From an uncultured Solibacteraceae bacterium (GTDB lineage Bacteria; Acidobacteriota; Holophagae; Holophagales; Holophagaceae): 64,000 nt of DNA. Position 1 is the first letter of the stretch. Each line of letters opens with the position of its first letter. Location of the stretch: contig CAZPUI010000001.1 of the NCBI GenBank assembly GCA_964589695.1, forward strand, positions 29,866 through 93,865, given 5' to 3'. The notes beneath the pieces were generated by a model. That model was not told the DNA's origin. It did no database searches and saw only the letters and a list, made by a program, of their open reading frames with translations. The position numbers and the translations under genes are program-made. This document shows, piece after piece, positions 4,696 through 62,736 of the stretch.

Positions 4696-4708
4696 GCGGA
4701 TTTTCCGC
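4696..4708 (-). promoter_or_regulatory. Element-wide upstream motif, copy 1 (sense GCGGAAAATCCGC, perfect palindrome)
   Basis: Plus strand reads GCGGATTTTCCGC. It lies 32 nt upstream of the acyltransferase ATG (4664), in the 47-nt gap after the Gly-rich operon. Confidence 0.7.
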
Positions 4709-4711
4709 CTC

Positions 4712-5080
4712 CTACTCGGAGCCAGCGAGCTTCCCAGCCAGAATCGCCTTCTGGATCACACCGGTTGCCCCGGCGCCCTCAAGCTTTCCGAGGGCTCCAG
4801 CGGCGGCGCCCAACTTCCCGAACTTTCCAAGGACAGGTATCGCGCCGACCCCCTTCTCGGCAGCGTCCTGCAGCGCCCCGTCAACTCCTCTGGACGCGTC
4901 AATCAGATGGATCCCTGCACCCACGGCAGACCCGATTCCCGTCGGATCCACCAGGCCAGCCTTGTTGACGAGGCCTTGCTGATCACTGGAGAGCAGCGGC
5001 TTAACGCCTGATTTGGCAGGCTCAGGCGATGGCAACGGACTGGGATCATTTTGCAGGCGCATTGACAAATCCTTTCCCAA
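4712..5080 (-). CDS. Gly/Ala-rich small protein (third gene of the Gly-rich trio)
   Basis: 122 aa. The Pro/Ser-rich N-terminus is followed by GxxxG/AxxxG-type repeats (GIGSAVGAGI, GKLGAAAGALGKLEGAGATG). Same strand as 5046..5654 and overlapping it. No signal peptide. Confidence 0.55.
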   Translation of the reverse strand: MGKDLSMRLQNDPSPLPSPEPAKSGVKPLLSSDQQGLVNKAGLVDPTGIGSAVGAGIHLIDASRGVDGALQDAAEKGVGAIPVLGKFGKLGAAAGALGKLEGAGATGVIQKAILAGKLAGSE

Positions 5081-5654
5081 ATTTCATCAGGCCCCAGAGG
5101 GCGGCCCCCGTGGCCACGGTCCCCCCCATGCCCAGGTTGAACCCGACCTTGTTAGCCACCACCCTCGCCAGAAGCGCTGCGCCGATGGACACAATTTCCG
5201 GGTTGTTCATCAAATGGAACTTAAGGCGGTCCATGAATCCACTTCCCGCCGGATAGCCATCGGGCCCCGCCTTCCCAGGGTCAGCTGGTTGGTCAGGTTC
5301 AACCCCCTTGCTGACAGAAGTGGGTTCAGGAGCGAAAGCCCTGGCGCGTTGGGGCCCGGGTGAGGCGACATCGACAGAACGGGAGGCTTCCGCCCCCACC
5401 GCGGGGCCGTCCTTCACCTCCAGGGCTGGTACTGCCTTGAAATCGGATCGGCCTTCGACCAGATCCTTGGATGACACGACGCCCCAGCTCTTTTCCATTG
5501 CCGCAGGAAACGGGAATCCTCCGCTCGGAGTCGTTTCGCCCTTGGCAAGAAGAGACGGGGGTTCTGGGGTTGCACCCATCGGAGCTGGCCCAGGAGCTGG
5601 CCCAGGCAAGGGTGCAATCGAGACGTCAGGGGAAGCCAGGCCAGGACACATCAC
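5046..5654 (-). CDS. Pro/Gly-rich protein with a C-terminal glycine-zipper-like hydrophobic tail
   Basis: 202 aa. The start overlaps the upstream stop as ATGA (5654/5651). The disordered-looking Pro/Gly/Ala N-terminal two thirds are followed by GFMDRLKFHLMNNPEIVSIGAALLARVVANKVGFNLGMGGTVATGAALWGL. This tail resembles the one in 5651..6337. Confidence 0.6.
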   Translation of the reverse strand: MMCPGLASPDVSIAPLPGPAPGPAPMGATPEPPSLLAKGETTPSGGFPFPAAMEKSWGVVSSKDLVEGRSDFKAVPALEVKDGPAVGAEASRSVDVASPGPQRARAFAPEPTSVSKGVEPDQPADPGKAGPDGYPAGSGFMDRLKFHLMNNPEIVSIGAALLARVVANKVGFNLGMGGTVATGAALWGLMKFGKGFVNAPAK

Positions 5655-6337
5655 TTGCCTTCCGTGGGCGGGGCTGGGGCTTGGGCACTCGCTCCCGATT
5701 TGCCGCCGAATACCATCTTGGCGGCGAGGCCAGCTGCTGCAGCGACGGCTCCGGAGAGGGCCAGGGACATCCCATTCGCAAGCAGTCCTCCGCCAGGCAC
5801 CACCGCCTTGAAGATCTTCGTACCAATTGAGCTCTCAGAACTGGCGCTCATCGCCAGCATCCCGATGCCCGCTGCAATGGCGGCCGTTTTCCCGGGATTA
5901 GCCTTCACCCAATCGATGGCTGTATCCAACATGCCCTTGTCTCCAGCAGCGGCAGGCCCTGGCACTCCCTCCTGCAGGACGCTGGTCTTCAGGGCGGCCC
6001 CTTCCGTACCGGGTGCCTTAATCGGATTCACGTCCTGGGTCACCGCCATCGAACGGTCAACATCCTGGCCTCTGTCATGGCCTGAAACCGCTCGACCAGC
6101 AGCCTGGAAGTCATTCCCCGGATTCGAGAGCCCAACCTTCCCGGCCTGGGCAACCCCGCCTCCAGTCCCCTGTTGGACGATCGATCGGAAATCGAAGGGT
6201 TCGCGCTGGGGCTGAGCCCCACCCTCTCCTCCCAACAGGGACAAGCCCATGGTAGAGCCAGAGTTGGGTTGGGCTGCCGGTTCAAGGCTTGCAGCCAAAC
6301 CTGGTGAGATTTCCTGACCCATCGATGGACCCGGCAT
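5651..6337 (-). CDS. Gly/Ala-rich protein with a C-terminal glycine-zipper-like hydrophobic tail
   Basis: 228 aa. AAGGAGG lies 7 nt upstream of ATG 6337. The N-terminus looks disordered and has no signal peptide. The tail is GMLDTAIDWVKANPGKTAAIAAGIGMLAMS...GGGLLANGMSLALSGAVAAAAGLAAKMVFGG. Confidence 0.65.
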   Translation of the reverse strand: MPGPSMGQEISPGLAASLEPAAQPNSGSTMGLSLLGGEGGAQPQREPFDFRSIVQQGTGGGVAQAGKVGLSNPGNDFQAAGRAVSGHDRGQDVDRSMAVTQDVNPIKAPGTEGAALKTSVLQEGVPGPAAAGDKGMLDTAIDWVKANPGKTAAIAAGIGMLAMSASSESSIGTKIFKAVVPGGGLLANGMSLALSGAVAAAAGLAAKMVFGGKSGASAQAPAPPTEGK

Positions 6338-6370
6338 AGAGACCTCCTTTGTCCGTCCAAGATCACTTGT

Positions 6371-6383
6371 GCGGATTTTTCGG
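6371..6383 (-). promoter_or_regulatory. Element-wide upstream motif, copy 2 (sense CCGAAAAATCCGC, one extra A)
   Basis: 34 nt upstream of ATG 6337, in the 112-nt intergenic gap. Confidence 0.6.
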
Positions 6384-6449: not shown

Positions 6450-7529
6450 TCAGCAGAGGTCTGCAGCCACCGTGCTCATCAGCCGACCGCATACCGGGGT
6501 GATCGCAGGGCTCATCAGCGCGTCTGCGAAGACCTCACCTGGGACAGGCACAACTTCGTCCAGGCCGTGGGTGAGTTCGGCCACGGCGCTCTGTAGGGCC
6601 TCCATGCGCCCGGTACCGAACAGCTCGGCGGGGAGCGCCTCCGGTCTCCAGCCGGTCACGGTGTAGACATCCTTCAGGAAGGCGGCCTGATCCGGGACTC
6701 TCGCAATGACTGAGTTCACCGGGCCCTGCTCTACGGCAGCCACCTGAACCCGCCGTGCCGTCCGGTGGATGATGCCACTGATGAGGCGAGGAAGCCCCAG
6801 CGGTGACAACACAAACACACCAGGCCCCCACTTTCCCAGCGGGGGAGCCTCTTTCCGCTCGCCCAGGATCTCGATGTAGGCGCCCTCGGCAATGGCCTGG
6901 CTGAGGTCAAAGGCACCGTCGGCACCCGTGGGATAGAGAGCGATCTCCACCTTTGGAAATTCGGCTCGGGCTCTCTGCAACGGATCCTCGATGGGCGGGA
7001 AAGGACCGAAGGGCGACACAAATGCCTCCCAGTCGGCGCTGTAGACCGCGATATGCCAGGACCCCTGTTGGATGGCGAGCAGGGTGTCGTTCCACCAGGT
7101 CTCTGGGTTCCTGGCGGAGCTCCCCACACCAAGAACCGGTTCGTAGGCGAGCGTGAGTTCCCCCTCCGGGAGTTCGGCCCGGTCCACCTTGGCCTGCTCC
7201 AGCTGCGCGGCGACCGACATGCAGCTGCGCCAGATTCGGATCCATTGCCCGTTGGCAAGCCGCGGTGCATGGAGGACGTAGTGTTCAGGCGGGGCAACCC
7301 AGCCCGAGAACCAGGTCTGCAGCTTGGTCTTGAGGGTGCCGTCGAAGAGTCCGCACCCGTACCGGTCCCGCCATTCAGCCAGGTCTGGATCGAGGCAGTC
7401 AGCGATGGTATCCCATCCGACAAGGCCACCTGCAATGGCTCGCAGTTCCTCGTCCTGGAGGTACTGCGGGGCCAGTGGCAGCAGGCACGAAGAGGCAGCG
7501 ATCGAGGCGTAGGTTGTTCTGCGATCCAT
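6450..7529 (-). CDS. Hypothetical protein (359 aa)
   Basis: Long ORF with protein-like composition. GGAAAGGG lies upstream of ATG 7529, and the upstream motif precedes it. No domain recognised. Confidence 0.6.
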   Translation of the reverse strand: MDRRTTYASIAASSCLLPLAPQYLQDEELRAIAGGLVGWDTIADCLDPDLAEWRDRYGCGLFDGTLKTKLQTWFSGWVAPPEHYVLHAPRLANGQWIRIWRSCMSVAAQLEQAKVDRAELPEGELTLAYEPVLGVGSSARNPETWWNDTLLAIQQGSWHIAVYSADWEAFVSPFGPFPPIEDPLQRARAEFPKVEIALYPTGADGAFDLSQAIAEGAYIEILGERKEAPPLGKWGPGVFVLSPLGLPRLISGIIHRTARRVQVAAVEQGPVNSVIARVPDQAAFLKDVYTVTGWRPEALPAELFGTGRMEALQSAVAELTHGLDEVVPVPGEVFADALMSPAITPVCGRLMSTVAADLC

Positions 7530-7562
7530 GGGGCATCCCTTTCCAAGCTGATTCTTGGAGCG

Positions 7563-7575
7563 GCGGGTTTTCCGC
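7563..7575 (-). promoter_or_regulatory. Element-wide upstream motif, copy 3 (sense GCGGAAAACCCGC, one substitution)
   Basis: 34 nt upstream of ATG 7529. It lies in a divergent intergenic region shared with the + gene at 7645. Confidence 0.55.
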
Positions 7576-7644
7576 TACCGGGAATTTGTGGACTCGTATC
7601 TGAGAGGATGAAGGCCTGGCAACACCTTCCTGGACAATCCCGCC

Positions 7645-8064
7645 ATGCCAAAACTCCCGACTCCCGACCCATGGTTTGAGCACGCCACCGAGCAGATCAC
7701 CCGGCTTGCTCCGGAATTCATCCACACCGAGCTCTGGGAAGAACTGGACCACGAAGGTGGCTCCTTCCCCCCCAACTTCGGTGTCCTCAGGTATGACGAG
7801 GGCGAGGAATGGCCTCGGCTGATCGGCTTCCTCTACGGGATCGCCGAGATCCAGGAGATGGTCTACGGATATTTCGTGGAAATCGACGATCAGCTGAGCT
7901 CTGAGCCCAAGGCTTCCCGCTACCGCAAGGAGCGGCTATTCCGCATTCCTGGCACTGATCCGGTCCGAGTGATCGATCCTCTCCAAGAGGCCGCGAACGA
8001 GTGGCACACCTTCGTGCCGTCAGATCCCCCTCGACCGGGGTTCAAGATCAACTTGGACATCTGA
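7645..8064 (+). CDS. Hypothetical protein (139 aa)
   Basis: ORF with plausible composition but a weak RBS. No domain recognised. Confidence 0.45.
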   Translation: MPKLPTPDPWFEHATEQITRLAPEFIHTELWEELDHEGGSFPPNFGVLRYDEGEEWPRLIGFLYGIAEIQEMVYGYFVEIDDQLSSEPKASRYRKERLFRIPGTDPVRVIDPLQEAANEWHTFVPSDPPRPGFKINLDI

Positions 8065-8099: not shown

Positions 8100-9293
8100 G
8101 TGGAGGTCCATTTGAGCACACCCCTGGATCGAAAGCGCCTTGACGAGTTGAACACTGCAGACTTGATGCTCCTAATTGAGAATCAAGTCTCTGAGGGCAA
8201 GACGATTGACTTTAAGCGCATCCTACCGGGAATAACCGATAAGGACAGAAAAGAGTTCCTTCATGATGTCGCATCTTTTGCGAACGCCTCGGGAGGGCAT
8301 CTTGTTTTTGGAATCGATGAGGCGCAGGGCATCGCAACAGAGATCTTGGGTCTGAGGGATATCGACCCTGATAAAGAGGCTCTTCGGCTGGAAGAAGTAA
8401 TAAGGAGTGGGATTCGTCCACGCATCTATGGAATTCAGATCAGGGGAATCACCATTGAGAACGGAGCATTTGTCATCGTTATAAGGATTCCCAAGAGCTG
8501 GAATCCACCCCATCAGGTGACATTCCAGTCTGATATGCGGTTCTCTGCGCGAGGCCAAAGAGGGAAATACCTGATGGATGTAGACGAACTCCGTTCCACG
8601 CTGGAGCTCGCAAACACCGTTGGCGAGAAGGCACGCAACTTCCGCCTTGAGAGGGTTGCGAAAGTGCTAGCAAATGAAACGCCTTCCCAGGGCATTGAGG
8701 GCGGACACGTCATTTTCCACTTTCTTCCACTTTCTGCATTCTCGGGTGGATCCAGTCTGGAGTTCGCCAGGAACCATGGACACTACCCGTTCGAGGTTCC
8801 GCCTTTAATGCCGGGGGGCTTTAACCACCGCTACTGCTTTGATGGCTATCTCTTCACGCAGGGTTACCCGAGTCAAAATTCCTATCGGCTATTTTTTCGA
8901 TCGGGTGTAATGGAATACGTTGATTTTTATCCTACTGGTCAGGACCCATATGCCTTCAGGCTAAATTCGATAGTGGTAGAAAATTTCGTCCGGCAATGTC
9001 TTGAGCACGCCTTGAAAACTGCACAGACACTCGAAATTGATCCACCTGCATTCGTCGCACTAAGCCTTACCGGAATGAAAGGTTGGATCTGGAGTGTTGG
9101 AGATAGGCTAGTTCAACCACCTATCTCACGCTTTGATCGAGATCCTCTGCTGTTTTCAGAGAACTTCTTGGATGGGTTAGATTGCAACCTTGATGAAGTT
9201 CACAAAACCATTGTTGATCCTGTTTGGCAAGCAACGGGTTGGGAGCATTCAATGAATTTCCAGCAAGGGAAATGGACACCGAATAGTCCCTAA
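8100..9293 (+). CDS. AlbA_2 / Schlafen-type 'divergent AAA' (AAA_4) DNA-binding-domain protein
   Basis: The N-terminal region is ...ENQVSEGKTIDFKRILPG...FLHDVASFANASGGHLVFGIDE.... It matches the E-x-x-x-[DE]FK ... FAN-x-x-GG-x-[LI]-x-[FI]G[IV] signature of PF04326-type domains. The region is lower in GC. The start (GTG 8100) is uncertain. Confidence 0.65.
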   Translation: MEVHLSTPLDRKRLDELNTADLMLLIENQVSEGKTIDFKRILPGITDKDRKEFLHDVASFANASGGHLVFGIDEAQGIATEILGLRDIDPDKEALRLEEVIRSGIRPRIYGIQIRGITIENGAFVIVIRIPKSWNPPHQVTFQSDMRFSARGQRGKYLMDVDELRSTLELANTVGEKARNFRLERVAKVLANETPSQGIEGGHVIFHFLPLSAFSGGSSLEFARNHGHYPFEVPPLMPGGFNHRYCFDGYLFTQGYPSQNSYRLFFRSGVMEYVDFYPTGQDPYAFRLNSIVVENFVRQCLEHALKTAQTLEIDPPAFVALSLTGMKGWIWSVGDRLVQPPISRFDRDPLLFSENFLDGLDCNLDEVHKTIVDPVWQATGWEHSMNFQQGKWTPNSP

Positions 9294-9302
9294 ATCCCTC
9301 TG

Positions 9303-10619
9303 TCAGACCGGCCTCTCCACCGTCACCGGTACCATCACCTGGTTCAGATGCCCGCCAGCGTCCGCAGCCTCCACGACGAGCTGCACGGGAAACCCTACGT
9401 AGGGCGCCCCACCCTCTGATTTCCAGGTCGCGGTGATCACCTTGCGCAAGGGATCCCAGTTAAGCGTCGGTGTCGTGCTCACAGGAAGGCCCAGATACAG
9501 CACCGTAGCCTTGAACTTTGTCGTGTCGATGTCATCCCGTTCAGGATCTGAAATCACGAAGGTCCAGGCTGCTGTCGCCCCTGCGGGGATAGTGGTCGGG
9601 TTAGTGGGAGCCGCCGTGAGGACCGGCCCGAGGTTGTTCCGGATGGTCAGGAAGAGCTCTGACACGCCCACCACACCGTTGGCATTGGCACAGGTCAGGA
9701 CCAGGGAGATCTTGCGGTCCAGCAGGACCGTATCCATCGGAACCGCCCAGCTCATGGTGGCGACCTTGGTGATAGCGTCCCACCTGACAGCAGGGGCTGG
9801 GGTCAGCTCTCGGCCGGAATACACGGCCACTGCCCGCAAACTCCCCTCCCGGATCGCGTCTCCATTCGGGTCCGTCACCTGGTAGCGCAGTTCCACACCC
9901 GTGCCTTGCTTGAGCTCCTGGGGAGGATTAAGGGCAGCCACAGTGGGAGCTGGATTCTTCTCGATGGTGATCGCTTGGAAACTCGAAGCCTTCAAGCCCA
10001 CGTTGTTTTCCAGCTCGAAATCCAGGATCGCTGAGCCGGCGGCACCCATCGGTGGCGTCCAGGTGATGAGCTTGGTCGCTGGATCGTAGAGTGCCCCAGC
10101 CGGCTGGCGGAACGAGCACTGGACTGAACCGGGATCGTCATCCTCGAACGCCACGCGCCACCGGAACACCTTGCCCTCCACAGGCGGCACCCCATTCACG
10201 ATGGGAGTGACAGTAATCGCCTGCGGTGCCTTCCGGATTTCCGGCTGCAGTTCCCAACTCTGGTGGGCTTTGAGCCCGGAGGAGCTGGTCGCAGTTAGGA
10301 CGAAGGTGCACTTCTGGCCTGCATGGTAGAGGGCCGGTCTCCAGACCATCCGCTCGTTGTCCAGAAGCTCTGCCCCAGAGGGCCCCGAAAGAGACAGGGT
10401 GTAGGTTCGCTTGCTCTCCATTTGGACCACGGGCCGGTACTCGTAGGTGAGGCCGGGTTTGACCGGCAGCCCACTGGCGAGAGCGGTGGGCGGGGTGGTC
10501 GCGAAGACCGGCGGGGAGTCCCGATCGACCGTTGTGTTCGTCACCGTGGCCGAGCCACCACAACCCACGACCAGAAGCGTGATGGCCAGGGCCAGACTGG
10601 ATGCGCGCAGAGAATCCAT
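9303..10619 (-). CDS. Surface/periplasmic lipoprotein with tandem Ig-like (cadherin-like) repeats; last gene of the virB8-virB10 operon
   Basis: I chose the start MDSLRASSLALAITLLVVGCGG (lipobox VVGC) at 10619, after GGGGAGGG. Internal ~100-aa repeats are visible: ...LRYQVTDPNGDAIREGSLRAVAVYSG...RWDAITKVATMSW versus ...WTFVISDPERDDIDTTKFKATVLYLG...NWDPLRKVITATW. Confidence 0.7.
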   Translation of the reverse strand: MDSLRASSLALAITLLVVGCGGSATVTNTTVDRDSPPVFATTPPTALASGLPVKPGLTYEYRPVVQMESKRTYTLSLSGPSGAELLDNERMVWRPALYHAGQKCTFVLTATSSSGLKAHQSWELQPEIRKAPQAITVTPIVNGVPPVEGKVFRWRVAFEDDDPGSVQCSFRQPAGALYDPATKLITWTPPMGAAGSAILDFELENNVGLKASSFQAITIEKNPAPTVAALNPPQELKQGTGVELRYQVTDPNGDAIREGSLRAVAVYSGRELTPAPAVRWDAITKVATMSWAVPMDTVLLDRKISLVLTCANANGVVGVSELFLTIRNNLGPVLTAAPTNPTTIPAGATAAWTFVISDPERDDIDTTKFKATVLYLGLPVSTTPTLNWDPLRKVITATWKSEGGAPYVGFPVQLVVEAADAGGHLNQVMVPVTVERPV

Positions 10620-15193: not shown

Positions 15194-15223
15194 TGCAGGC
15201 CTCCAGCATCCAGGCTTGGGCCT

Positions 15224-15236
15224 GCGGATTTTCTGG
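15224..15236 (-). promoter_or_regulatory. Element-wide upstream motif, copy 4 (sense CCAGAAAATCCGC)
   Basis: 31 nt upstream of the virB8 ATG (15193), in the 82-nt gap after the third virB6 paralog. Confidence 0.65.
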
Positions 15237-20636: not shown

Positions 20637-20683
20637 GGCTGGCCTCGACCGACACAGGGGCCGGTGTGGTCAGGATGGGTCGT

Positions 20684-20696
20684 GCGGATTTTCTGG
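20684..20696 (-). promoter_or_regulatory. Element-wide upstream motif, copy 5 (sense CCAGAAAATCCGC)
   Basis: 48 nt upstream of ATG 20636. It lies in the divergent region shared with the XRE regulator gene. Confidence 0.65.
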
Positions 20697-20791: not shown

Positions 20792-21511
20792 ATGGCGAGA
20801 CCAAGAAATACCTCGGTTCCAAAGGTACATTTGAAACCTGATGCTCTGCCTGACTGGGCCAAAAAGATGAAGGAATATCGGGAGAACGCCGGCTTCACAC
20901 AGGTGGATCTCGAAAAAGCAATGAACGCCCCTGCCAATACCCTAAGCTTGGTTGAACGGGGAAAGCGGCTGATCACTACTGTCGACCGAACCAAGTTTTT
21001 CGAGCTGATTGGACAGCACGAAGACCTCGAGATTCCCGTGAGAATCGTGAAGGAAGCGAAGGCCAAGCGGCCGGCGGTTCCCAAACAGATTAAGGCCTCG
21101 AAACCCAGCAAACCCGCATCCTTGAAAGGGCCAGCCAGGGCTTCCACGGGGCGGAAACCCAATGCCAAGGTCGAGCCAGTAACCCCTCAGGTGCCGGAAG
21201 CGGCGCTCCCCAGCCCGTCTTCGCCTGGGCCGACCGAGGTTGTGGCCCCTGAGCGTGCGGTCGCCCCTCCGGCGGTGGAACGGGTCCAGGACGCTCCCAA
21301 GACCGCCTCCCGGGCAAGGGCACAGAAGAGCATGGAAACCCAAGGGACTCCCACAACGCCAGCCAGCCCCTCGGGCCTCTCTCCGGTTAAGGACGCGGTG
21401 CTGCGCGATATCGCCCGCATCCTTGGCAATCCTGGCCTGAGCGATAGCCAAGCCAGAAACCTTCACGGGCTCTTCACCTCGCTGGCCGTAAACGCCCTGC
21501 TGGGGGGCTGA
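20792..21511 (+). CDS. XRE/Cro-C1 family helix-turn-helix regulator with a Pro/Ala/Ser-rich disordered C-terminal half
   Basis: The HTH is ...YRENAGFTQVDLEKAMNAPANTLSLVERGKR.... I chose start ATG 20792 (MARPRNTS), after GAGAGGAAA. The track's 20582 start would overlap the divergent gene. It is the only + strand gene inside the virB block. Confidence 0.7.
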   Translation: MARPRNTSVPKVHLKPDALPDWAKKMKEYRENAGFTQVDLEKAMNAPANTLSLVERGKRLITTVDRTKFFELIGQHEDLEIPVRIVKEAKAKRPAVPKQIKASKPSKPASLKGPARASTGRKPNAKVEPVTPQVPEAALPSPSSPGPTEVVAPERAVAPPAVERVQDAPKTASRARAQKSMETQGTPTTPASPSGLSPVKDAVLRDIARILGNPGLSDSQARNLHGLFTSLAVNALLGG

Positions 21512-31335: not shown

Positions 31336-31405
31336 TGGCTCCTCCTCGTGAGAAGTGAGTGATGGGGATGGATGCTCGGAAGGTTTGTCATCCGCAAGGG
31401 CAGAA

Positions 31406-32479
31406 TCACGCCTGCGGATTTTCCGCCATGGCCAAAAAGGATTTTTTTTGAGCTGCATCTACCAGTATTTGAAACCTTTCTGTTGGGCTACTTCCATCCC
31501 AGACAGGCTCACCCAAACACCAAAAAATGCGGTCCACATCAGGGAAAAAGCGCAAAAGGTGGGGCGGAAAAATCGAGCGCATCGGCGAGGATTCCGCCAG
31601 GATGTCCTGGAACTCGCGGAGGGTTGGAGGTCTTTGGAGGTATTCGCAGGCTTCCTTGTAGAGGGCATCCCTGACTTCCTGGAGATGCCAAGGCTCCGAA
31701 TCCGCGTTCTGACCTCGCTGGGAACGCTCTGCGTGGTACTTGGATAGGAAGGATCCCGACATGTGGTGGTTGGCGCGGGCGGGGATGACGTTCCACTCGT
31801 TGTCGGGGCCGCCCTGGACTGGGTCCAGCACCTCCCGCCGACGGCCGATGAAGGCAATGACACCCACGCCCTCCGCGGCCAGTTCGGAATCAACCTGGGA
31901 GAGCAGGTGCGACAAGAATGCATGACGCGCACTGTTACCGACTGTGATGGTCACATCGACGGTGTCACCCATCTGTGTTTCGCATCCAAATACCTGGAGC
32001 ATGGCCTCAGGATTGCCGACGATCAGCGTCTGGCGGCGGGAGGTGGCCTCCCCGCGACACCTCCAGCCCAGGGTGTCCGCCTGCGACTCAATGCGCCCGA
32101 ACACCTCCCAGTCGTCCGGCTTCAGGATCCTGGCCTTCAACACCTCGCTGTAGTCCACCCCCAGGACCACGACCGGAACCTGGTCCATTCCTTCCGGCGC
32201 CCTCCAGGCTGCCGTGAGGGCCCTCGCCAGATGGAAATCCAAGGGCAGGCTCTCCGTCAACCGTGGGTCAATCCACTCCTGAATCGTCAGATCGTCTCCG
32301 GTGAAATGGGACCTCTGTCCGCACCTCACCATCCGCGCAAGCCGAACGGCCCAGGGCTCCCTGACCTGCTCCAGATCCGCCAGAACAAACGCTCCCCTAT
32401 TCTTCAAAGTCCACCTCTTCCAAGAGACCTTGCTGCTCCTCGTCTTCTCCGGCTGCCTCGACGGGCCAGGGAACGCCAA
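31406..32479 (-). CDS. Hypothetical protein (up to 357 aa; start uncertain)
   Basis: Long ORF with protein-like composition. Its 5' end overlaps the upstream ORF by 83 nt, so a later start is possible. No domain recognised. Confidence 0.5.
   Translation of the reverse strand: MAFPGPSRQPEKTRSSKVSWKRWTLKNRGAFVLADLEQVREPWAVRLARMVRCGQRSHFTGDDLTIQEWIDPRLTESLPLDFHLARALTAAWRAPEGMDQVPVVVLGVDYSEVLKARILKPDDWEVFGRIESQADTLGWRCRGEATSRRQTLIVGNPEAMLQVFGCETQMGDTVDVTITVGNSARHAFLSHLLSQVDSELAAEGVGVIAFIGRRREVLDPVQGGPDNEWNVIPARANHHMSGSFLSKYHAERSQRGQNADSEPWHLQEVRDALYKEACEYLQRPPTLREFQDILAESSPMRSIFPPHLLRFFPDVDRIFWCLGEPVWDGSSPTERFQILVDAAQKKSFLAMAENPQA
31414..31426 (-). promoter_or_regulatory. Element-wide upstream motif, copy 6 (sense GCGGAAAATCCGC, perfect palindrome)
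   Basis: 79 nt upstream of the pilin ATG (31335). It overlaps the last codons of ORF 31406..32479. Confidence 0.65.
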
Positions 32480-33982: not shown

Positions 33983-34008
33983 GCCTCCTCGCGATCAGGC
34001 TATGGGCT

Positions 34009-34021
34009 GCGGATTTTCCAC
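34009..34021 (-). promoter_or_regulatory. Element-wide upstream motif, copy 7 (sense GTGGAAAATCCGC)
   Basis: 27 nt upstream of ATG 33982. It lies only 7 nt from the divergent + start at 34028. Confidence 0.65.
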
Positions 34022-34027
34022 CGGAAA

Positions 34028-34762
34028 ATGCGCACGAGCCAAAATCGGGAGATGCCACTTGCCCCTGCGAAAGGCCTCACCCCGCCCCTCGAACGTCAGC
34101 TCAACCCGGGCATTGCCTCTGAGGACCTGAGCCGACTTCTGAATCGCCAGAGGGCCCAGTCACCCGATCAAATTGGCGTCTGCAGCCAATGCGGGTACGA
34201 GGGGCCCGTCTGGTCCATGGATGCCGCACAACGCATCGACCTCCAGGAATCCCTCGCCATCCCCGCCATCTCCGGCGACTACCTCTCCTGTGCCATTTGC
34301 GAGATCGGACGAAGCGCCACCATGCGCTACATTTCCGTCTTTCGCGGGTTCGTCTGGTATCTCTTCGGTACAGAGAAAAGCCCGAGCCAGGAGGTAATCA
34401 ATCGTTCCATCTGGCGGGCGGCACTGGTGGGGGAACCGCGCTTTCGTGAGACGCACCGGGCCCAGCTGCGGGATGATCTCGCCCTCGATCGCATTGGGCG
34501 CGGCTTCAAGCTCTCCGAGGAAGTGCTCACCCCTTCCGAACGCGCTGCTGCAGAGGGGTACATCTTCAGCCTAATCCCGCGGAATCGGGGGCTGACCCCA
34601 TTGCACCGAGGCGCCCTGCTCGGATCACTGGGCGTCCACCACCTGCTTCAGGAAACGGAGCAAGGACGGCTTTCACCGCGGTGGATCGATCATTTGCGGT
34701 ACTTCCCGACGCCATCGGGACTGCTTCATTTCAGTTTGCAGAAGCGGGTGACCGCGCCTTAA
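34028..34762 (+). CDS. Hypothetical protein with a CxxC...CxxC zinc-ribbon-like motif
   Basis: The in-frame ATG 34028 is the first start that does not overlap the divergent gene. It contains VCSQCGYEGPVWSMD...LSCAICEIG (two CxxC pairs). The start is uncertain and no clear RBS is present. Confidence 0.45.
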   Translation: MRTSQNREMPLAPAKGLTPPLERQLNPGIASEDLSRLLNRQRAQSPDQIGVCSQCGYEGPVWSMDAAQRIDLQESLAIPAISGDYLSCAICEIGRSATMRYISVFRGFVWYLFGTEKSPSQEVINRSIWRAALVGEPRFRETHRAQLRDDLALDRIGRGFKLSEEVLTPSERAAAEGYIFSLIPRNRGLTPLHRGALLGSLGVHHLLQETEQGRLSPRWIDHLRYFPTPSGLLHFSLQKRVTAP

Positions 34763-39451: not shown

Positions 39452-39462
39452 GTTATCCCCCA

Positions 39463-42213: not shown

Positions 42214-42241
42214 CTCCGCCTCCGACCCCAGGATCGGGGCG

Positions 42242-42254
42242 GCGGATTTTCCGG
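42242..42254 (-). promoter_or_regulatory. Element-wide upstream motif, copy 8 (sense CCGGAAAATCCGC)
   Basis: 29 nt upstream of ATG 42213, which heads the virB11-containing gene string. Confidence 0.65.
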
Positions 42255-47776: not shown

Positions 47777-47997
47777 AGTTTCACAGAACGAACCTTTCCA
47801 TCGGCGAATTTTGCGGCTGGGAAATCTCCTTTTGCTCCAATTGCAATTTCACGAATGCATTTCATAGCATTTGACACACGATTTCACCGATTGTTCTCTA
47901 TACAATAGCATTTTGTACACCGCCATAGCGAACATTCATTGTCGGAATTGCGGACTCCCTTACGATTTGGAGTCCCAGATGCAATGCTGACCCCAGG

Positions 47998-48501: not shown

Positions 48502-48532
48502 CATGCGCGGAATCGCACATCACCACATCATT
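48502..48532. repeat. 31-nt direct repeat, copy B
   Basis: CATGCGCGGAATCGCACATCACCACATCATT. Its CAT (48502..48504) is the start codon of the minus ORF 48283..48504. Confidence 0.8.
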
Positions 48533-57794: not shown

Positions 57795-58072
57795 GGCCGC
57801 AACCCTCGGGCCATACGCTCCGCCTCGTCCCCTACCCTCTTCCCACTGCCATTCCCGAAGGCCATGGCCAGGCTGATCGGCAGAGACAGCAACCCAGCAC
57901 AAAGGATGATTGGTAGCAGCCCGTTTTCCTGTAGCAGTGGCTCCATTAGGTCCCACTGTTTCCTGAAGACAAACCAGAATTCGAACCCGACAATTCCCAG
58001 GCCCAGAAGGAACCCGAGAAGCATGTTGGTCGCGCGAGGATCCTTCTCTTTCGACCCAGCACCCTTAGCCAT
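57791..58072 (-). CDS. Small two-TM membrane protein (~93 aa)
   Basis: I chose start MAKGAGSKEKD... at 58072, an 8-nt overlap with the HU-like gene end. The TM segments are MLLGFLLGLGIVGFEFWFVF and LLPIILCAGLLSLPISLAMAF. Confidence 0.5.
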   Translation of the reverse strand: MAKGAGSKEKDPRATNMLLGFLLGLGIVGFEFWFVFRKQWDLMEPLLQENGLLPIILCAGLLSLPISLAMAFGNGSGKRVGDEAERMARGLRP

Positions 58073-58436
58073 TGGCACCACCAACTTCCGCATGGGCAGA
58101 GGCCTTTCTCGCGACCTTCTTGACCCTCGTGACTGGACCATCCTCTTGCATGCGTTCTGCCATTTCTTTGGCAATCGCAGCCCTGATTCTGGGCTTGGTG
58201 ATTCCGGTCCAATCGGTCCCCTTTGGCGTTTGACGTCTCTGGGGAAGGCCATGTAAGGCTTCAATAACACCGATCCCTGCAAGGTGAACCGTCTTGCCTT
58301 CGAGCAGGGCACGCCTGAGTAACAAATTCAGTGCATCCACGATGTCCCTGGCCACCATCAGGTTTGGAATTCCTTCAGGGAAGGTGGCCTTCAGTTCACG
58401 AGTCAAGTCGGTGACGGTGTATGTAGTTTTCTTCAT
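58065..58436 (-). CDS. HU/IHF-family DNA-binding protein with a basic C-terminal tail
   Basis: I chose start MKKTTYTVTDLTRELK... at 58436, after AAAGGAGAG. The pattern is ...ARDIVDALNLLLRRALLEGKTVHLAGIGVIEALHGLPQRRQTPKGTDWTGITKPRIRAAIAKEM. It fits the HU fold: helix-helix, G-x-G, and an R-x-x-R/K arm. Confidence 0.7.
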   Translation of the reverse strand: MKKTTYTVTDLTRELKATFPEGIPNLMVARDIVDALNLLLRRALLEGKTVHLAGIGVIEALHGLPQRRQTPKGTDWTGITKPRIRAAIAKEMAERMQEDGPVTRVKKVARKASAHAEVGGANG

Positions 58437-58466
58437 GCGCACTCTCCTTTCGTCAGTTTCTGAGCT

Positions 58467-58479
58467 GCGGATTTTCCGC
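58467..58479 (-). promoter_or_regulatory. Element-wide upstream motif, copy 9 (sense GCGGAAAATCCGC, perfect palindrome)
   Basis: 31 nt upstream of the HU-like ATG (58436). It lies in the divergent region shared with the + gene at 58514. Confidence 0.7.
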
Positions 58480-58513
58480 AACCAGCAAACTCCGAAGGAA
58501 AGGAGGCGTAACG

Positions 58514-58954
58514 ATGGTGATCTTCAAAAGGTTCGAGCACCACAGAACTAAAACCGCGTGGGCTTTCGAGTTTGGTGTCCTGACCCTCCTTAGCGGTGGT
58601 GTCTATGCCGTCCTGTGGCTGGCTGCCCAGGGCCCTAGACTTTCACGGGAAGCGTTCCATCTGAGAGCCCTCAATCACCTCCATCCAGAAACGAACCCAT
58701 CTCCCTGGCCCTGGCTCCGAAAAGCCTCCTTGGCCTGGGTGTCTTCCTGTATCGGGCTATTTTTTCTGTCGCTCTTGGTGGCCGGGCTTTCGACACCGCT
58801 TCTCAGGAACCACCCGCATTGGGTTGGCTACATCGGTCTTGTCATCGTGCTTCCCGTGATGGTTATGCTCGCGGAGGGCTTCAGGCTGGTCTTTCAGGTG
58901 ATGAAGGCAGCGTGCTTCCCACCCCGGGTTCTGAGTGGTTTGATGGAAGCCTGA
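58514..58954 (+). CDS. Membrane protein (146 aa, ~4 TM)
   Basis: AAAGGAGG lies 7 nt upstream of ATG 58514. Hydrophobic segments include AFEFGVLTLLSGGVYAVLWLAA, SLAWVSSCIGLFFLSLLVAGL and WVGYIGLVIVLPVMVMLA. Confidence 0.6.
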   Translation: MVIFKRFEHHRTKTAWAFEFGVLTLLSGGVYAVLWLAAQGPRLSREAFHLRALNHLHPETNPSPWPWLRKASLAWVSSCIGLFFLSLLVAGLSTPLLRNHPHWVGYIGLVIVLPVMVMLAEGFRLVFQVMKAACFPPRVLSGLMEA

Positions 58955-59295: not shown

Positions 59296-59425
59296 TTGCT
59301 TCCTTGCTTGCTGTCTTGCCCTCTTTCTTGGTTTTCTCATATCTTTGTTTCTTCCTTTTCCCTTTGGTGCTTTCCTGTCTTCGTTTTTTCATCTTTTGTT
59401 CCCTTTCGTTTTTCCTTGTTCATGG
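59296..59425 (+). other. Strongly strand-asymmetric pyrimidine (C/T) tract, ~130 nt
   Basis: The + strand is ...ttgcttccttgcttgctgtcttgccctctttcttggttttctcatatctttgtttcttccttttccctttggtgctttcctgtcttcgttttttcatcttttgttccctttcgtttttccttgtt..., almost devoid of A on the + strand. The ORFs drawn through it (59279.., 59296.., 59304..) translate to Phe/Leu/Ser/Cys strings. Confidence 0.75.
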
Positions 59426-59474
59426 GTTGTGCTGTATGCTTACTCGGTGGTTTGCACCCTTGGGAGATCCCTCC

Positions 59475-60713
59475 ATGCCTTCTTCTCACTTTGTCGTTGT
59501 GCCTCCCTCTAACCAAAGTGATATGCCAAGTATCCACTGGCGGGTGGTGGATGGATCCCTTCCTCTCAATCGCGTACTAGTTATCGGCAGTCCGAAGGGT
59601 GGGAGTGGGAAGACCTCGCTCACCACCTTTGCTGCCAGCGAACTGGCTCGGCTAGGGGCTAGAGTGCTCCTCGTCGAGGCCACCGAGGGGCAAGCTCCAC
59701 TGACCCAAGCGTTCGCCTTTGCCGACGCATACTCAGAGCTCGGCACAGGGCTTGGATTACACCTTCAGCGCATCATTGGCTATCCAAAGGACGGGGAAAC
59801 CTATTCCCAGACCCTGGCGCGGCTTAGAGGAATGGCGAGCATAGAAGCTGGCCAGGCCTGTGGCTCCATACGACGAGTCAGCGTATCGCCAGTAAACCCA
59901 ACCTTGGGCTTCGACTTCCTGCCATGTGGGGAATCCAATCTGGCCGAGGTGGCGTCCAGTTCGAAGATGGCCCAGCGCCCCATTCGCCGGGCAATGTTCG
60001 CCGCATTCCTCGAAACCCTCGCACAGGCTCGTGGTGGCGGCTGGGACTTCATTCTCATTGACGTGCTCCCGTCAGCGGAGTCCCCGATTGTGAAGGGGGC
60101 CATGGGTGTAGCCGACGCGTACGCACTCGTGGTTGACACGAAGTCCGCTCAGCCTCTACCAGGCTGGGGCGTGCTCATGGAAGAAATCATGCGAATCCAG
60201 CAGGCCCGAGAAGAGGAGGGCAAAGCACCCGACATATTCAAGGGGATCATACTGAACAAGGTCAACCTATCCAGGTCGAACTTCACCCAGAAAATCAACA
60301 ACTTGAAGATCCGAGTCAAGCAGCATGAGGCAGCTGCTGAAGGTGTGGATGTCCCGGTTCTAGCTCAGATCAGGGAGCTCACCAGCCTGGCTCTTCTTGG
60401 CTTCAACGTCCATGCGGTCGCACAACTTGCAGCAGCTTACGGTGGGCGGATCCCCGAGGATCTTGACAGCCTCACCGACGATGATGTCCATCGTCTCGTT
60501 CTGTTTGAGAAAGGTCTCTCCGCAGAAGGGAATCCACTGCCGGTGGCTGCTGGTATCGAGTGGCTGGCCAGTCTCCTTCCAGGCTCCCGCAAAACCCTGA
60601 TGCTCGAAGCCCAACTGCTCCACCCCATGCTCCTCGAACTGGCAGGAGACGCAGCTGCTGTCGAGGCCCTACGTGGATACTTTGCAGTCGTGAGCCAATC
60701 CGACGCCGACTGA
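59475..60713 (+). CDS. parA: ParA/MinD-family partition ATPase (large, ~412 aa, with a C-terminal extension)
   Basis: I chose start MPSSHFVVVPP... at 59475, after GGGAGA. The deviant Walker A is VIGSPKGGSGKTSLT. Walker A' reads VLLVEAT and Walker B reads FILIDVLPS. Confidence 0.8.
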   Translation: MPSSHFVVVPPSNQSDMPSIHWRVVDGSLPLNRVLVIGSPKGGSGKTSLTTFAASELARLGARVLLVEATEGQAPLTQAFAFADAYSELGTGLGLHLQRIIGYPKDGETYSQTLARLRGMASIEAGQACGSIRRVSVSPVNPTLGFDFLPCGESNLAEVASSSKMAQRPIRRAMFAAFLETLAQARGGGWDFILIDVLPSAESPIVKGAMGVADAYALVVDTKSAQPLPGWGVLMEEIMRIQQAREEEGKAPDIFKGIILNKVNLSRSNFTQKINNLKIRVKQHEAAAEGVDVPVLAQIRELTSLALLGFNVHAVAQLAAAYGGRIPEDLDSLTDDDVHRLVLFEKGLSAEGNPLPVAAGIEWLASLLPGSRKTLMLEAQLLHPMLLELAGDAAAVEALRGYFAVVSQSDAD

Positions 60714-60723: not shown

Positions 60724-61383
60724 ATGGCAATCGATCCTCGCTCCCGTCTCGCAGCCACTCTGAAAGAGGTCCCGAACCGTGCAGACAGGGCCTCGACCGG
60801 GTTCTTGAGCTTCGCACGACGTCAAGACCCAGAACCTCCGCCACCAATGCCAACCGAGATACCCGAGGAACAACGGGAAATACCCACGGTTGACATTGTG
60901 TCCATGCAACGCAGCGAGCACCCTGTGAACCAGGCGCCTCTCCCCGTGCTGCAATCAACCGAGAAGGGGAAGGGTACTTCCACTTTGGCCAAACTGGCGA
61001 GTGGGCGGGACCTGGCCAAAGAGACCGGCGGGACCAAACGTAGCATCATCTTCGACACCGAAGTTTGGTCATTCCTGAGGACCCTGATGATCAAGCAGTC
61101 CGCTGCCCAAAAGCGCAGGGTCACGCTCACTAGCATCATCCACGAGGGACTGAAAAATCCGCTTGATCCCGAAACTGCCCGCGCCGGCAAAGAGTTGCTG
61201 ACCCAGCGGCACCGCCTATATGGGACAGTCTCTACCAACGTGATCATCCCTGATTCGCTGCTGGAGGCCATGCAGCGTGAAGTGGAAGCCTACACCACCA
61301 CCAGAACAATGCTAAGCATTGGTGCTGTGGCAGAACTCCGGGTTGCGTCGTGGGCTGTCCAGCACCCGCTGTGGCCTACTTAA
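60724..61383 (+). CDS. Putative centromere-binding protein with two ribbon-helix-helix-like repeats (ParG/CopG style); inference
   Basis: It starts 11 nt after the parA stop. The N-terminal half looks disordered. It is followed by KRSIIFDTEVWSFLRTLMIKQSAAQKRRVTLTSIIHEGL and STNVIIPDSLLEAMQREVEAY...SIGAVAELRVASWAV (beta-alpha-alpha pattern twice). Confidence 0.45.
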   Translation: MAIDPRSRLAATLKEVPNRADRASTGFLSFARRQDPEPPPPMPTEIPEEQREIPTVDIVSMQRSEHPVNQAPLPVLQSTEKGKGTSTLAKLASGRDLAKETGGTKRSIIFDTEVWSFLRTLMIKQSAAQKRRVTLTSIIHEGLKNPLDPETARAGKELLTQRHRLYGTVSTNVIIPDSLLEAMQREVEAYTTTRTMLSIGAVAELRVASWAVQHPLWPT

Positions 61384-61810
61384 TCTGCGAGCGCACCCAG
61401 TCAGAGACGAGCGCCGTAATGGTCGATCCCCTTCTGGCAGCCAGGTGTCTCAGTGGCTGCACGATGTTCCATAGATTCCAGGATTCCTGAAGAATTTGTT
61501 GGGATGAGATTCCCAGCTCAAAAGCATTTTCTTTCAAAGTCCTGTGATCCTGCTCTTGCATTCGGAAGATAACGCCAACTGGTTTTTTCTTAGCCTGGTT
61601 TAATTTAGAAGTGTTTTCAATGGTTCTTTGGACCAATTGAGATACGATATTTGGGTTTTTTAATGGATCATATTCCTCACTGTTGAAAGTTGTTTCGGTA
61701 TCATCTGCTCCAACAACACCCTGCATGCTCGCGAGCAGGGCTTTGATGGATTCTGGATCTGATACTGGATCCTTGAGGCTTTGTTTTGGTTTTCTATTCG
61801 ACGCAGCCAA
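61376..61810 (-). CDS. Putative ribbon-helix-helix centromere-binding protein (partner of the ParA at 61794..62483)
   Basis: 144 aa. The start overlaps the parA stop by 17 nt. KKPVGVIFRMQEQDHRTLKENAFELGISSQQILQES fits an RHH beta-alpha-alpha pattern. Confidence 0.5.
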   Translation of the reverse strand: MAASNRKPKQSLKDPVSDPESIKALLASMQGVVGADDTETTFNSEEYDPLKNPNIVSQLVQRTIENTSKLNQAKKKPVGVIFRMQEQDHRTLKENAFELGISSQQILQESWNLWNIVQPLRHLAARRGSTITALVSDWVRSQIK

Positions 61811-62483
61811 GGATAATCTCCTTCACAAACTTGGAGTGATTGTGCGATGGGCTATATTCCCAAATGGCGAGACCGTTAAGGATTGCTTCTCCAAATTTTT
61901 CGCTATGCAGGATTTCTCCTAGGTAGGCGACGTTCTTTTTATATACCAGGGCGTCTTTGATAATTCTGCCCATCTTTGTAGTTCTAAAATCCGTGAGTAG
62001 TGACCTTGAAACGAGCAACCTTACGCTAAGTCTCCTTCTTTGTTCGTTGACGACCCAAAGGATCTGCTCGAGTGGGCCGAAGGATTCCATCTCTGTGTGA
62101 CCCAGGCGTATTGGGTGGATGGCCACATCACTTATGGTTAGGGCTGTCGCGAACTCTTCCCCGGAAGTTGGATTGGTGTCGATTACCACATCCTCGAAGT
62201 TTGCTCGACACTGCAGCACGGTACTTTCCAGGTGTTCTCGCGATTGAACCTGTACGAAAGGAATTTCTGGAATGTTCAGTTCGGGATGAAGCTTCCTGTA
62301 TTCCTCTCTCCTCCGGAAGAGACGGGACCCTTGACTGCCCTTCACATCCGAGTCCAGAAATAGTACGTCTCTGCCTTCAGCGGCCAGAAGCGCTGCCATT
62401 GATATGGCTGTACATGTCTTTCCTGTTCCACCCTTGAGATGGGCTACCACGTAGACCCTAGACTGTTTTCGATCGCGGACCAT
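61794..62483 (-). CDS. parA: ParA-family partition ATPase (small, 229 aa, type Ib-like)
   Basis: The deviant Walker A is VVAHLKGGTGKTCTAISMA. Other motifs are VLFLDSDVKG and VVIDTNPTSG. Moderately AT-rich. Confidence 0.8.
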   Translation of the reverse strand: MVRDRKQSRVYVVAHLKGGTGKTCTAISMAALLAAEGRDVLFLDSDVKGSQGSRLFRRREEYRKLHPELNIPEIPFVQVQSREHLESTVLQCRANFEDVVIDTNPTSGEEFATALTISDVAIHPIRLGHTEMESFGPLEQILWVVNEQRRRLSVRLLVSRSLLTDFRTTKMGRIIKDALVYKKNVAYLGEILHSEKFGEAILNGLAIWEYSPSHNHSKFVKEIILGCVE

Positions 62484-62532
62484 TCGCTGAGTATGGCAGG
62501 CATTGCGTTGGAGATGAAACCAAAGTTGCTAT

Positions 62533-62568
62533 CATGCTATCATGCTAGCTTGTTAGCATGATAGCATG
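62533..62568. repeat. 15-bp perfect inverted repeat CATGCTATCATGCTA-(GCTTGT)-TAGCATGATAGCATG upstream of the small parA operon (candidate operator / centromere-like site)
   Basis: The arms are 62533..62547 and 62554..62568. Each arm is itself a direct repeat of the ATCATGCT unit. It lies 50-85 nt upstream of ATG 62483. Confidence 0.8.
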
Positions 62569-62723
62569 CTACTACTATTTCTCAAACGGTGGAGGTTACC
62601 CATGGACCCCAGTTCAGACCTGGGATACCGTCACCTCAACGGACCTACCAGATCTCCATCTTTTAGGAGTTGTTCTTTGTTCGCCTTGCCTTCGGCTTGT
62701 TCAAATTTCCCTTCTCAGAGTCT

Positions 62724-62736
62724 CCGGAAAATCCGC
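62724..62736 (+). promoter_or_regulatory. Element-wide upstream motif, copy 10; the only + strand copy (CCGGAAAATCCGC)
   Basis: It reads in sense orientation on the + strand, 135 nt upstream of the ATG (62871) of the right-edge ORF. Confidence 0.55.

Follow-up and report, generated by a model that had tools for sequence, protein, structure and literature searches.

A dyad-like box coupled to a downstream hexamer at the backbone operons of a conjugative element: a possible promoter without a −35 element

What kind of signal is carried by a short motif that recurs ahead of the operons of a conjugative element? This question is raised by a 64-kb stretch of DNA (the window, hereafter) in contig CAZPUI010000001.1 of an uncultured Solibacteraceae bacterium, which holds an element with a type IV secretion system (T4SS); the box statistics, gene scans and hexamer counts given below refer to this window unless stated otherwise. 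In a first-pass annotation, the motif (the box, hereafter) was thought to mark essentially every transcription unit of the element, and either a core-promoter role or the role of an operator for an element-encoded regulator was proposed. The present analysis supports the view that the box is a promoter-associated signal specific to the backbone operons of the element. As to its function, we see about an even chance that the box forms the upstream half of a bipartite promoter which has no −35 element and depends on a dedicated factor (an activator-type hybrid promoter).

The exact 10-mer GAAAATCCGC is found eight times in the window, while the expectation from dinucleotide-preserving shuffles is 0.15 copies, with a maximum of 2. 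These eight copies and the two one-mismatch variants at 6371 (GAAAAATCCGC) and 7563 (GGAAAACCCGC), all known from the first pass, were recovered at the same coordinates and on the same strands. A one-mismatch search with GGAAAATCCGC returned both variants and one copy that had been overlooked: an 11th box on the plus strand at 34023–34033 (GGAAAATGCGC, one mismatch), which heads the divergent gene 34052–34762, likewise absent from the first-pass list. The intergenic share of the window is 7.1% by our gene list, and nine of the ten original copies fall there (P about 4e-10); the copy at 31414 overlaps the last codons of open reading frame (ORF) 31406..32407, and hence, contrary to the earlier assumption, not all of the copies are strictly intergenic. 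All ten point to the next gene. The distances from the motif end to the start codon are 31, 33, 33, 30, 47, 78, 26, 28, 30 and 134 nt, that is, 26–33 nt in seven copies; the remaining three stand at 47, 78 and 134 nt. Both the common orientation and these distances agree with the earlier description, whose figures count one nt more.

The right half of the box was previously regarded as its sole invariant part. This was too strong: the bases just before the A-run are also conserved, with C in nine, G in eight and G in nine of the ten copies. From this conservation of the left half, the box is read as a dyad-like site, CGGA-AAA-TCCG. Apart from the downstream hexamer described below, the flanks of the ten aligned copies carry no information. 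An interspersed repeat of the REP/MITE type was also considered and ruled out on these uninformative flanks and on the occurrence of every copy at a gene start.

The alignment of the ten copies on the motif, with columns counted from the G of GAAAAT, revealed a second element. A hexamer, nAnnnT, stands exactly 6 nt past the motif, and its A (column +17) and T (column +21) are present in all ten copies, for which the chance probability is about 2e-14. The ten hexamers are CAAGAT, GATCTT, AAGAAT, AAGCCT, CATCCT, GATTCT, TAGCCT, GATCCT, GAAACT and CACAGT. The six bases between the box and the hexamer are weakly conserved in these copies, with no invariant position. In six or seven units, a Shine-Dalgarno (SD) sequence, GGAGG or similar, follows 6–7 nt after the hexamer. 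The module is laid out as the box (G/C)CGGAAAATCCGC, 6 nt, nAnnnT, about 7 nt, and then the first SD purine or the A of ATG; with the SD sequence, it forms a chain of box, 6 nt, hexamer, 7 nt, SD, 6–8 nt and ATG. The fixed distance from the motif to the ATG arises because these parts stand at fixed spacings. The 6-nt coupling of box and hexamer is exact in 13 units, and it is kept within 1 nt across lineages despite the divergence of the intervening bases. A hexamer on the far side of the box is restricted to boxes with a divergent gene: it was found in both such boxes, versus none of about seven without a divergent gene.

About 13 backbone transcription units of the element carry this module: those of the acyltransferase, the three-gene string earlier labelled Gly-rich, the 359-aa gene, virB8-9-10, the 529-aa gene string, pilin/virB4 with four large genes, the 226-aa operon, the VirB11-like string and the HU-like/coupling-protein string, as well as three plus-strand units and the 62727 unit. 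The module is not found at the XRE gene, both ParA loci, the low-GC LytTR two-component island and the genes at 43–45 kb. The statement that the motif marks essentially every transcription unit is thus too wide, as these latter units lack it.

Few relatives of the element exist. A search of 5.8 billion proteins with its VirB4 gave only six further clusters, at 43–53% identity; no near match to the element was found among the PLSDB plasmids, and a VirB4 scan of the GTDB representative genomes gave no relative. A VirB10 scan gave one close genomic match, an Acidobacteriota metagenome-assembled genome (MAG; lineage L017, 57% identity), together with distant Proteobacteria, and VirB10 also matches several metagenomic contigs. 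A scan of the JGI metagenomes returned members of already known lineages only. Contigs of 128–164 kb are available for lineages L015, L001 and L100, and SRR13723393 and SRR13723396 contain reads of the element itself. The gene order is conserved between the element and its relatives, and the relatives, at 43–57% protein identity, carry their own version of the box and a −10-like hexamer at orthologous operon starts.

Lineage L011 has AAAAAATCCCG-GACCCA-TAGGCT (pilin), AGAAAATCCCT-GATCCA-TAGGCT and AGAAATTCTCG-CCTTCT-TAGACT, and L008 has ACAAAATTCGC-CATCCA-TAGGAT-7 nt-GAGGAG, AGAAATTTTCTCC-TCCC-TAGTCT (pilin) and CACAAAATTTGCGC-TCCA-TAGACT. In L015/L016, we found GGAAAAGTCCC-N7-TAGTCT-8 nt-ATG with no SD, GGAAAAACTCCC..GAATCT-7 nt-AGGAG (virB8 ortholog) and GGAAAAACTCTC..GAAATG-7 nt-GGAGG; in L017, GGAAAATCTCC-N7-GACACT and GAAAAAGTCGC..AACAAT-6 nt-AGGAGG. 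The promoter of gene 19047–20636 has orthologous promoters in L008, L011, L015 and L016, and the ortholog of this gene in L015/L016 begins with an SD-less ATG 8 nt past the hexamer. Orthologous boxes also stand ahead of the pilin gene in L011 and L008. In the same two lineages, a single box lies between the ortholog of the 226-aa operon and the divergent gene. Around one box of a divergent pair, two −10-like hexamers are exactly 25 nt apart in the window (58467), L011 and L008. The divergent gene begins with an SD-less ATG 6–7 nt past the hexamer: CAAAAT-N6-ATG in the window, TACGCT-N7-ATG in L011 and TATCCT-N6-ATG in L008. The box is nearly identical inside one element and different between elements, which is the pattern expected of a regulator and a site that co-evolve.

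An A at position 2 and a T at position 6 form the −10 signature of the sigma-70 family. The downstream hexamer has both bases in all ten copies, and relatives carry TAGnCT; it is thus a predicted −10 element. Two nAnnnT words are therefore to be compared in each unit, as GAAAAT within the box also fits this pattern. In the first-pass annotation, GAAAAT was called −10-like. If it is the −10 element, CCGC would be a GC-rich discriminator, transcription would start 5–7 nt later at a conserved A/G, the leaders would be 24–30 nt long, and the downstream nAnnnT, at about +5 to +10, could cause sigma-dependent pausing close to the promoter, as is known from lambdoid late promoters. This proposal agrees with the presence of A (six of ten) and G (eight of ten) after CCGC at a plausible start position, and with the 10–11 nt that the relatives keep from the closing T of the A-run to the second hexamer. 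The opposite strand reads GATTTT, again nAnnnT, so that bidirectional use would be explicable.

Nevertheless, we regard GAAAAT as an unlikely −10 element and not as the best fit; the downstream hexamer is favoured for five reasons. One is that the downstream hexamer is invariant and always stands 7 nt from the SD where an SD follows, which would otherwise be left unexplained. Another is that this hexamer stands 6 or 7 nt ahead of an ATG without a usable SD in three lineages, where starts set by GAAAAT would give the divergent gene SD-less or mis-spaced leaders, and 8 nt ahead in L015/L016. Such SD-less spacing is a leaderless geometry: in bacteria, TANNNT beginning about 12 nt ahead of the start codon marks leaderless genes (PMC3160421). 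The third is that the copy at 7563 reads GAAAAC ahead of a conserved core gene and thus lacks the critical T, and the boxes of L015/L016 read GAAAAG or GAAAAAC. The fourth is that, in the relatives, the downstream position is occupied by good hexamers of the form TAGnCT. The last is that a perfectly conserved word of 11–13 bp exceeds the needs of a −10 element.

A signal in the transcript, rather than in the DNA, was also weighed: a 5′-leader processing site, a stabilising hairpin, a translational element or an antitermination site of the RfaH/ops type. The short, fixed distance to the start codons is consistent with such a role, GCGGAAAAUCCGC offers a potential 5-bp hairpin in three copies, and ops/RfaH-type signals occur in long conjugation operons elsewhere. 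However, the leader folds are no more stable than their shuffles (z-scores from −2.7 to +0.9, mean about −0.7), Rfam gave no structured-RNA match in the window, and no NusG/RfaH-like protein was found among the window proteins scanned. A single box serves both strands, and the ATG at 34052 is only 18 nt from its box. An RNA signal is, on these grounds, extremely improbable.

How, then, might the two elements work together? If the downstream hexamer is the −10 element, it would be read by a sigma-70-family holoenzyme through A−11 and T−7. We infer start sites about 7 nt past the hexamer, coinciding with the ATG or with the opening purine of the SD, which would give leaders of 8–15 nt or leaderless mRNAs. 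With the start placed there, the box would extend from about −31 to −19 with its centre near −25, a region that is mere spacer DNA in a canonical promoter. In the ten-site alignment, no information content is seen at the −35 position, and at none of the motif sites did a scan for consensus promoters call a canonical sigma-70 promoter. The hexamers of the window are also weak, with T−12 in 1 of 13. The box would be bound by a dedicated factor with sequence specificity, probably a dimer encoded by the element, which would make up for the absent −35 and the weak −10, and all the backbone operons would then fire together. On a good palindrome, one bound factor could serve two divergent promoters. 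The weakness of the core elements and their exact spacing across lineages argue for positive control, and a −10 mostly devoid of T−12 fits a dependence on an activator. The data thus point to a positive, core-promoter role rather than to a plain operator. The earlier suggestion of an operator for an element-encoded regulator is compatible with the data and stands in outline, but the fixed 6-nt coupling, the weak −10 and the lack of a −35 favour a core-promoter site over an operator in the plain sense. The related idea of a single regulator coordinating the transfer genes is also supported: probably, one dedicated regulator switches the whole DNA-transfer machinery.

The same anatomy could be read with the opposite sign. 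With the downstream hexamer still as the −10, an element-encoded dimeric repressor would occlude RNA polymerase at every backbone promoter, and the host polymerase would use −10-only promoters, which are common in high-GC bacteria; such a network would resemble KorA/KorB/TrbA of RK2 or that of R388. The dyad symmetry CGGA-AAA-TCCG, the location of the site inside the expected polymerase footprint and the many copies on a single replicon are all in accord with this explanation. An XRE-family helix-turn-helix (HTH) gene and two ParA loci are present, and the global repressors of IncP and IncW plasmids are known to have repeated operators at fixed promoter positions. According to the PafBC study, many mycobacterial promoters are devoid of a −35 (PMC8635444). 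On the other hand, repressed plasmid promoters are usually strong, unlike the promoters here with their rare T−12 and no −35. Simple occlusion needs no exact 6-nt coupling, yet this coupling is maintained in the window and, within 1 nt, across lineages. The XRE protein excepted, neither a ParB/KorB-like protein nor another repressor family was found among the window proteins scanned. We therefore consider a global repressor operator possible, though not probable, and the strongest rival of the hybrid promoter.

An alternative sigma factor, of the element or of the host, might instead recognize the box as an upstream element and the hexamer as a −10, in a cascade of the late-gene style. Two conserved elements at a fixed spacing, with the A-run pointing towards the gene in all copies, would suit such a factor, and in lineage L001, the 15–16 nt from the A-run to TAGnAT equal a normal −35/−10 spacing. 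In the window, however, the box ends 6 nt from the hexamer, which is about 6 bp too close for the geometry of sigma domains 4 and 2, and the dyad and its sharing by divergent genes suit a dimer better. The spacing does not fit sigma-54 (GG-N10-GC): the GG/GC doublets of GGAAAATCCGC are 7 nt apart versus the 10 required, and a single AAA+ protein was found, an AAA_5 (dynein-related/McrB-like) ATPase, which is not a sigma-54 activator. Nor does it fit the extracytoplasmic function (ECF) type (GGAAC-N16-17-CGT), as the box-hexamer spacing is 6–10 nt and the hexamer is nAnnnT rather than CGT-like. No sigma-70 or ECF domain (Sigma70_r2/r4) was detected in the window proteins scanned. An alternative sigma factor is accordingly quite unlikely, and sigma-54, ECF, sigma-32 and sigma-H-like readings were ruled out on spacing. 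A promoter for a T7-like single-subunit polymerase (AT-rich at −17 to −13, start at CATA|G) was also rejected: no polymerase-sized candidate gene has any match, the window shows no conserved base at +1, and the sites have symmetry and are used in both directions.

Several points weigh against the proposed factor-dependent hybrid promoter. Leaders that start at the SD are unusual. A dyad inside the RNA polymerase footprint occupies the textbook position of a repressor operator, and activation from −25 has few precedents. GAAAAT within the box is itself an nAnnnT word. The promoter type may be host-wide, the census here covering the element window and its relatives. The architecture also differs in two more distant lineages: in L001/L012, an A-run (GAAAAAAT) is followed by N15-16 and TAGnAT, a normal −35/−10 spacing (L001 sites 2834–2910, 6100–6184, 8990–9078 and 18848–18894; L012 site 2190–2215), and L005 is without a clear box. 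Hence the architecture is not uniform over the whole family, and from one lineage to another the upstream element appears to have moved by roughly half a turn of the helix. Finally, no DNA-binding factor was linked to the box, and the conserved Zn-ribbon protein described next has no detectable homology or fold match.

Which protein could be the factor? The 11th box is followed by ACGAGC, CAAAAT, CGGGAG and the ATG at 34052, the T of the hexamer being 7 nt before the A of this ATG; the mRNA is predicted to be leaderless. The gene (34052–34762, plus strand) encodes a 236-aa protein with a CxxC...CxxC motif under a box promoter of its own. Homologs are placed divergently, opposite the operon upstream of pilin, in L001, L005, L008 and L011, the four lineages with DNA covering this junction. 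An exhaustive search of 1.84 billion clusters gave 14 representatives of the family, and a word-based search gave the self match alone. The protein has no Pfam, NCBIfam or PDB sequence match; its AlphaFold model (mean pLDDT 74) has no match among PDB folds, the best E-value being 0.99. The conserved position beside the box and the box promoter of its own make this protein, by position alone, a candidate box-binding regulator. In the database, protein P0027 (244 aa) starts at the ATG at 34028, inside the box; the ATG at 34052, 7 nt after the hexamer, is a more plausible start.

The XRE-family HTH gene (20792..21511, plus strand) is without a box. Upstream of it, TTGAGT-17-TATATG (or -19-TATGTT) is seen by eye; the consensus scan did not call this pair, which offers a weak contrast only. 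The XRE protein is a possible upstream switch of the regulon. Among the window proteins scanned with Pfam/NCBIfam, no sigma, WYL, FlhDC, LuxR, MerR or ParB domains were detected, and neither were homologs of MotA, AsiA or SARP. As a tentative and rather improbable extension, the box and the hexamer may define an undescribed promoter-specificity system of a rare T4SS-element family in Acidobacteriota, in which an orphan element-encoded dimer at about −25 (the Zn-ribbon protein of 34052–34762 being the best positional candidate) would adapt the housekeeping polymerase of the host to promoters devoid of a −35, license both directions from a single site and control the entire conjugation regulon, its own gene among them. 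If true, this would be a second, unrelated case of sigma adaptation, on a mobile element.

The individual units are arranged as follows. The minus-strand unit 4684..4708, with the box GCGGAAAATCCGC (4696–4708), N6 and CAAGAT (4684–4689), heads the acyltransferase gene 3507–4664 (Pfam Acyl_transf_3). This membrane acyltransferase is kept in at least two lineages (the window and L017, 8394–9605). In L017, the box precedes a 158-aa ORF just upstream of the acyltransferase gene, and the two are probably co-transcribed. Linked to the box in both, the acyltransferase looks like a member of the backbone regulon rather than cargo. The unit 6359..6383 (minus), with CCGAAAAATCCGC, N6 and GATCTT, heads the genes 5651–6337, 5046–5654 and 4712–5080. 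The box GCGGAAAACCCGC (7563–7575) is shared within 7551..7587, with a hexamer 6 nt off on each side: AAGAAT (7551–7556) leads to gene 6450–7529 on the minus side, and GAATTT (7582–7587) to genes 7645–8064 and 8100–9293 on the plus side. The unit 15212..15236 (minus), with CCAGAAAATCCGC, N6, AAGCCT, 7 nt and GGAGG, heads the virB8-virB9-(390 aa)-virB10 string from 14348–15193 onwards, identified by Pfam VirB8, CagX and TrbI. The same box, CCAGAAAATCCGC, with N6 and CATCCT at 20672..20696 (minus), heads 19047–20636 and the genes down to 15276; the genes after this box (20684) have no Pfam match, and the label VirB6-like for three of them stems from the first pass.

The pilin gene 30922–31335, the VirB3-like gene, virB4 and four genes of about 500 aa are headed by 31402..31426 (minus), with GCGGAAAATCCGC, N6 and GATTCT; the VirB3-like gene has no Pfam match and likewise keeps its earlier label. 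Between the pilin and VirB3-like genes, a strong, GC-rich hairpin with a T-run lies at 30865–30884 (minus strand), probably an attenuator that sets a pilin excess; in L005, three tandem pilin paralogs are found at 8304–9549. The 226-aa operon (33302–33982, 32397–33350 and 31406–32407) follows 33997..34021 (minus), with GTGGAAAATCCGC, N6, TAGCCT, 7 nt and AGGAGG; for its first gene, the second in-frame ATG at 33976, 7 nt after GGAGG, is a likelier start than 33982. On the plus strand, the unit 34021..34045 consists of CCGGAAAATGCGC, N6 and CAAAAT (34040–34045), with the ATG at 34052 after 6 nt. The unit 42230..42254 (minus), with CCGGAAAATCCGC, N6, GATCCT, 6–7 nt and GGAGG, heads 41347–42213, 40901–41344 and the VirB11-like ATPase gene 39463–40911 onwards (Pfam T2SSE). 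Another shared box, the perfect palindrome GCGGAAAATCCGC (58467–58479), lies within 58455..58491 with hexamers 6 nt off on both sides. On its minus side, GAAACT (58455–58460) leads to the HU-like gene 58065–58436 and the coupling-protein string; on its plus side, AACCAG, CAAACT (58486–58491), 7 nt and AAAGGAGG precede the ATG of gene 58514–58954. The unit 62724..62748 (plus) has CCGGAAAATCCGC, N6 and CACAGT, and the next start codon is distant (62871).

Among the units without the box, the ParA-like genes are located at 59304–60713 and 61794–62483. The latter has CATACT, 6 nt and ATG, and is probably leaderless. Just upstream of it, repeats with an 8-bp period (TATCATGC/TAGCATGA) form nested inverted repeats at 62518–62571 and 62483–62495; the array at 62518–62571 is likely the centromere or operator of the partition locus. 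The two ParA-like genes and the lack of any integrase seen suggest that the window element is a plasmid. A tyrosine integrase gene at the end of a relative (L015, 19232–20209) suggests an integrative element, and the family may switch between the two lifestyles. The GC content is 43–52% in 37778–40000 and 45000–48000 versus about 61% elsewhere; one of these stretches lies inside a 561-aa gene of the VirB11 string, and the other over the two-component island. Direct repeats of 31 nt (CATGCGCGGAATCGCAYRTCACCACATC.., 90% identical) at 47746–47776 and 48502–48532, 756 bp apart, occur in a 1.5-kb gap beside the low-GC LytTR/histidine-kinase genes 45281–47091 and could be scars that a cargo island left on insertion or recombination.

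If the hybrid-promoter reading is correct, the boxes provide a ready map of the transcription units of a deeply divergent, uncharacterised conjugation system, exemplify −35-independent hybrid promoters outside Actinobacteria, and reveal how compactly promoter, SD and start codon can be joined, with fixed distances between them; a specific family of candidate regulators would also be at hand. Promoters of Acidobacteriota and the regulation of their mobile elements are almost unstudied; our literature search found no paper on Acidobacteria promoters, and a search with the sequence word gave irrelevant matches only. In practice, the box-hexamer pattern helps annotate gene starts, with corrections suggested here for at least two (34052 and 33976), and it can help spot related elements in metagenomes.

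Among the known systems, the box promoters are most like those of PafBC, which works by sigma adaptation. PafBC hybrid promoters read tGTCgg-N10-tAnnnT, with a −26 element and no −35, and the factor is inserted between the DNA and sigma domain 4 of the housekeeping holoenzyme (PMC8635444). If the downstream hexamer is the −10, the promoters here would likewise be bipartite, with a TAnnnT-type −10, no −35 and, at a fixed spacing, an element specific to the regulon that covers −28 to −23, and one factor would switch many operons. They differ in that the box is 11–13 bp long, dyad-like, ends 6 nt and not 10 nt from the −10, and can serve two divergent promoters; in that the regulon is one of conjugation, whereas PafBC governs the DNA-damage response; and in that the starts here are predicted ones. 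No PafB/PafC homolog (WYL-domain HTH) was found among the window proteins scanned with Pfam or NCBIfam. In the middle promoters of phage T4 (a MotA box at −30 plus AsiA, sigma appropriation), a box also replaces the −35 beside an ordinary −10, and in SARP promoters, repeats ending 8 bp before the −10 do so (both are mentioned in PMC8635444 and PMC10936776); the sequence, position and symmetry of the box differ from both. MerR promoters share a dimer site near −25 in the spacer and, in mer operons, divergent pairs around one operator; they have a recognisable −35, spacers of 19–20 bp and dyads of 18–22 bp, whereas here there are no −35, a 13-bp dyad and no MerR protein found in the window.

Regulon-wide sites on mobile elements offer a second comparison. 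For AcaCD (IncC), SetCD (SXT/R391) and the tra boxes of TraR (Ti), an activator site is likewise repeated before each transfer operon. In those systems, the box has a class I/II position, level with the −35 or upstream of it; the present box, predicted at −31 to −19 and 26–33 nt from the start codon in seven of ten copies, is not upstream of a −35 there, and no FlhDC- or LuxR-like protein was found in the window. The IncP/IncW repressors (KorA with OA, KorB with OB, a 13-bp palindrome present 12 times, and TrbA; R388) resemble the present case in a short palindrome repeated about a dozen times in or near backbone promoters and in ParA-type partition genes on the same element. KorB sites, however, have variable distances and strong canonical promoters, unlike the fixed position and weak core seen here, and no KorB/ParB homolog was found: the genes downstream of the ParA-like genes, 60724–61383 and 61376–61810, match neither ParB nor another family. 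As the box promoters match none of the named families in full, they are best described as working like the PafBC, SARP or MotA types while being a member of none. Mobile elements with regulon-wide sites are already a known kind, and so are hybrid promoters devoid of a −35; the two would be combined here in a new form, a dyad near −25, 6 nt from the −10, with divergent sharing and leaders reduced to the SD or to nothing, conserved in a deep T4SS family that includes an Acidobacteriota MAG.

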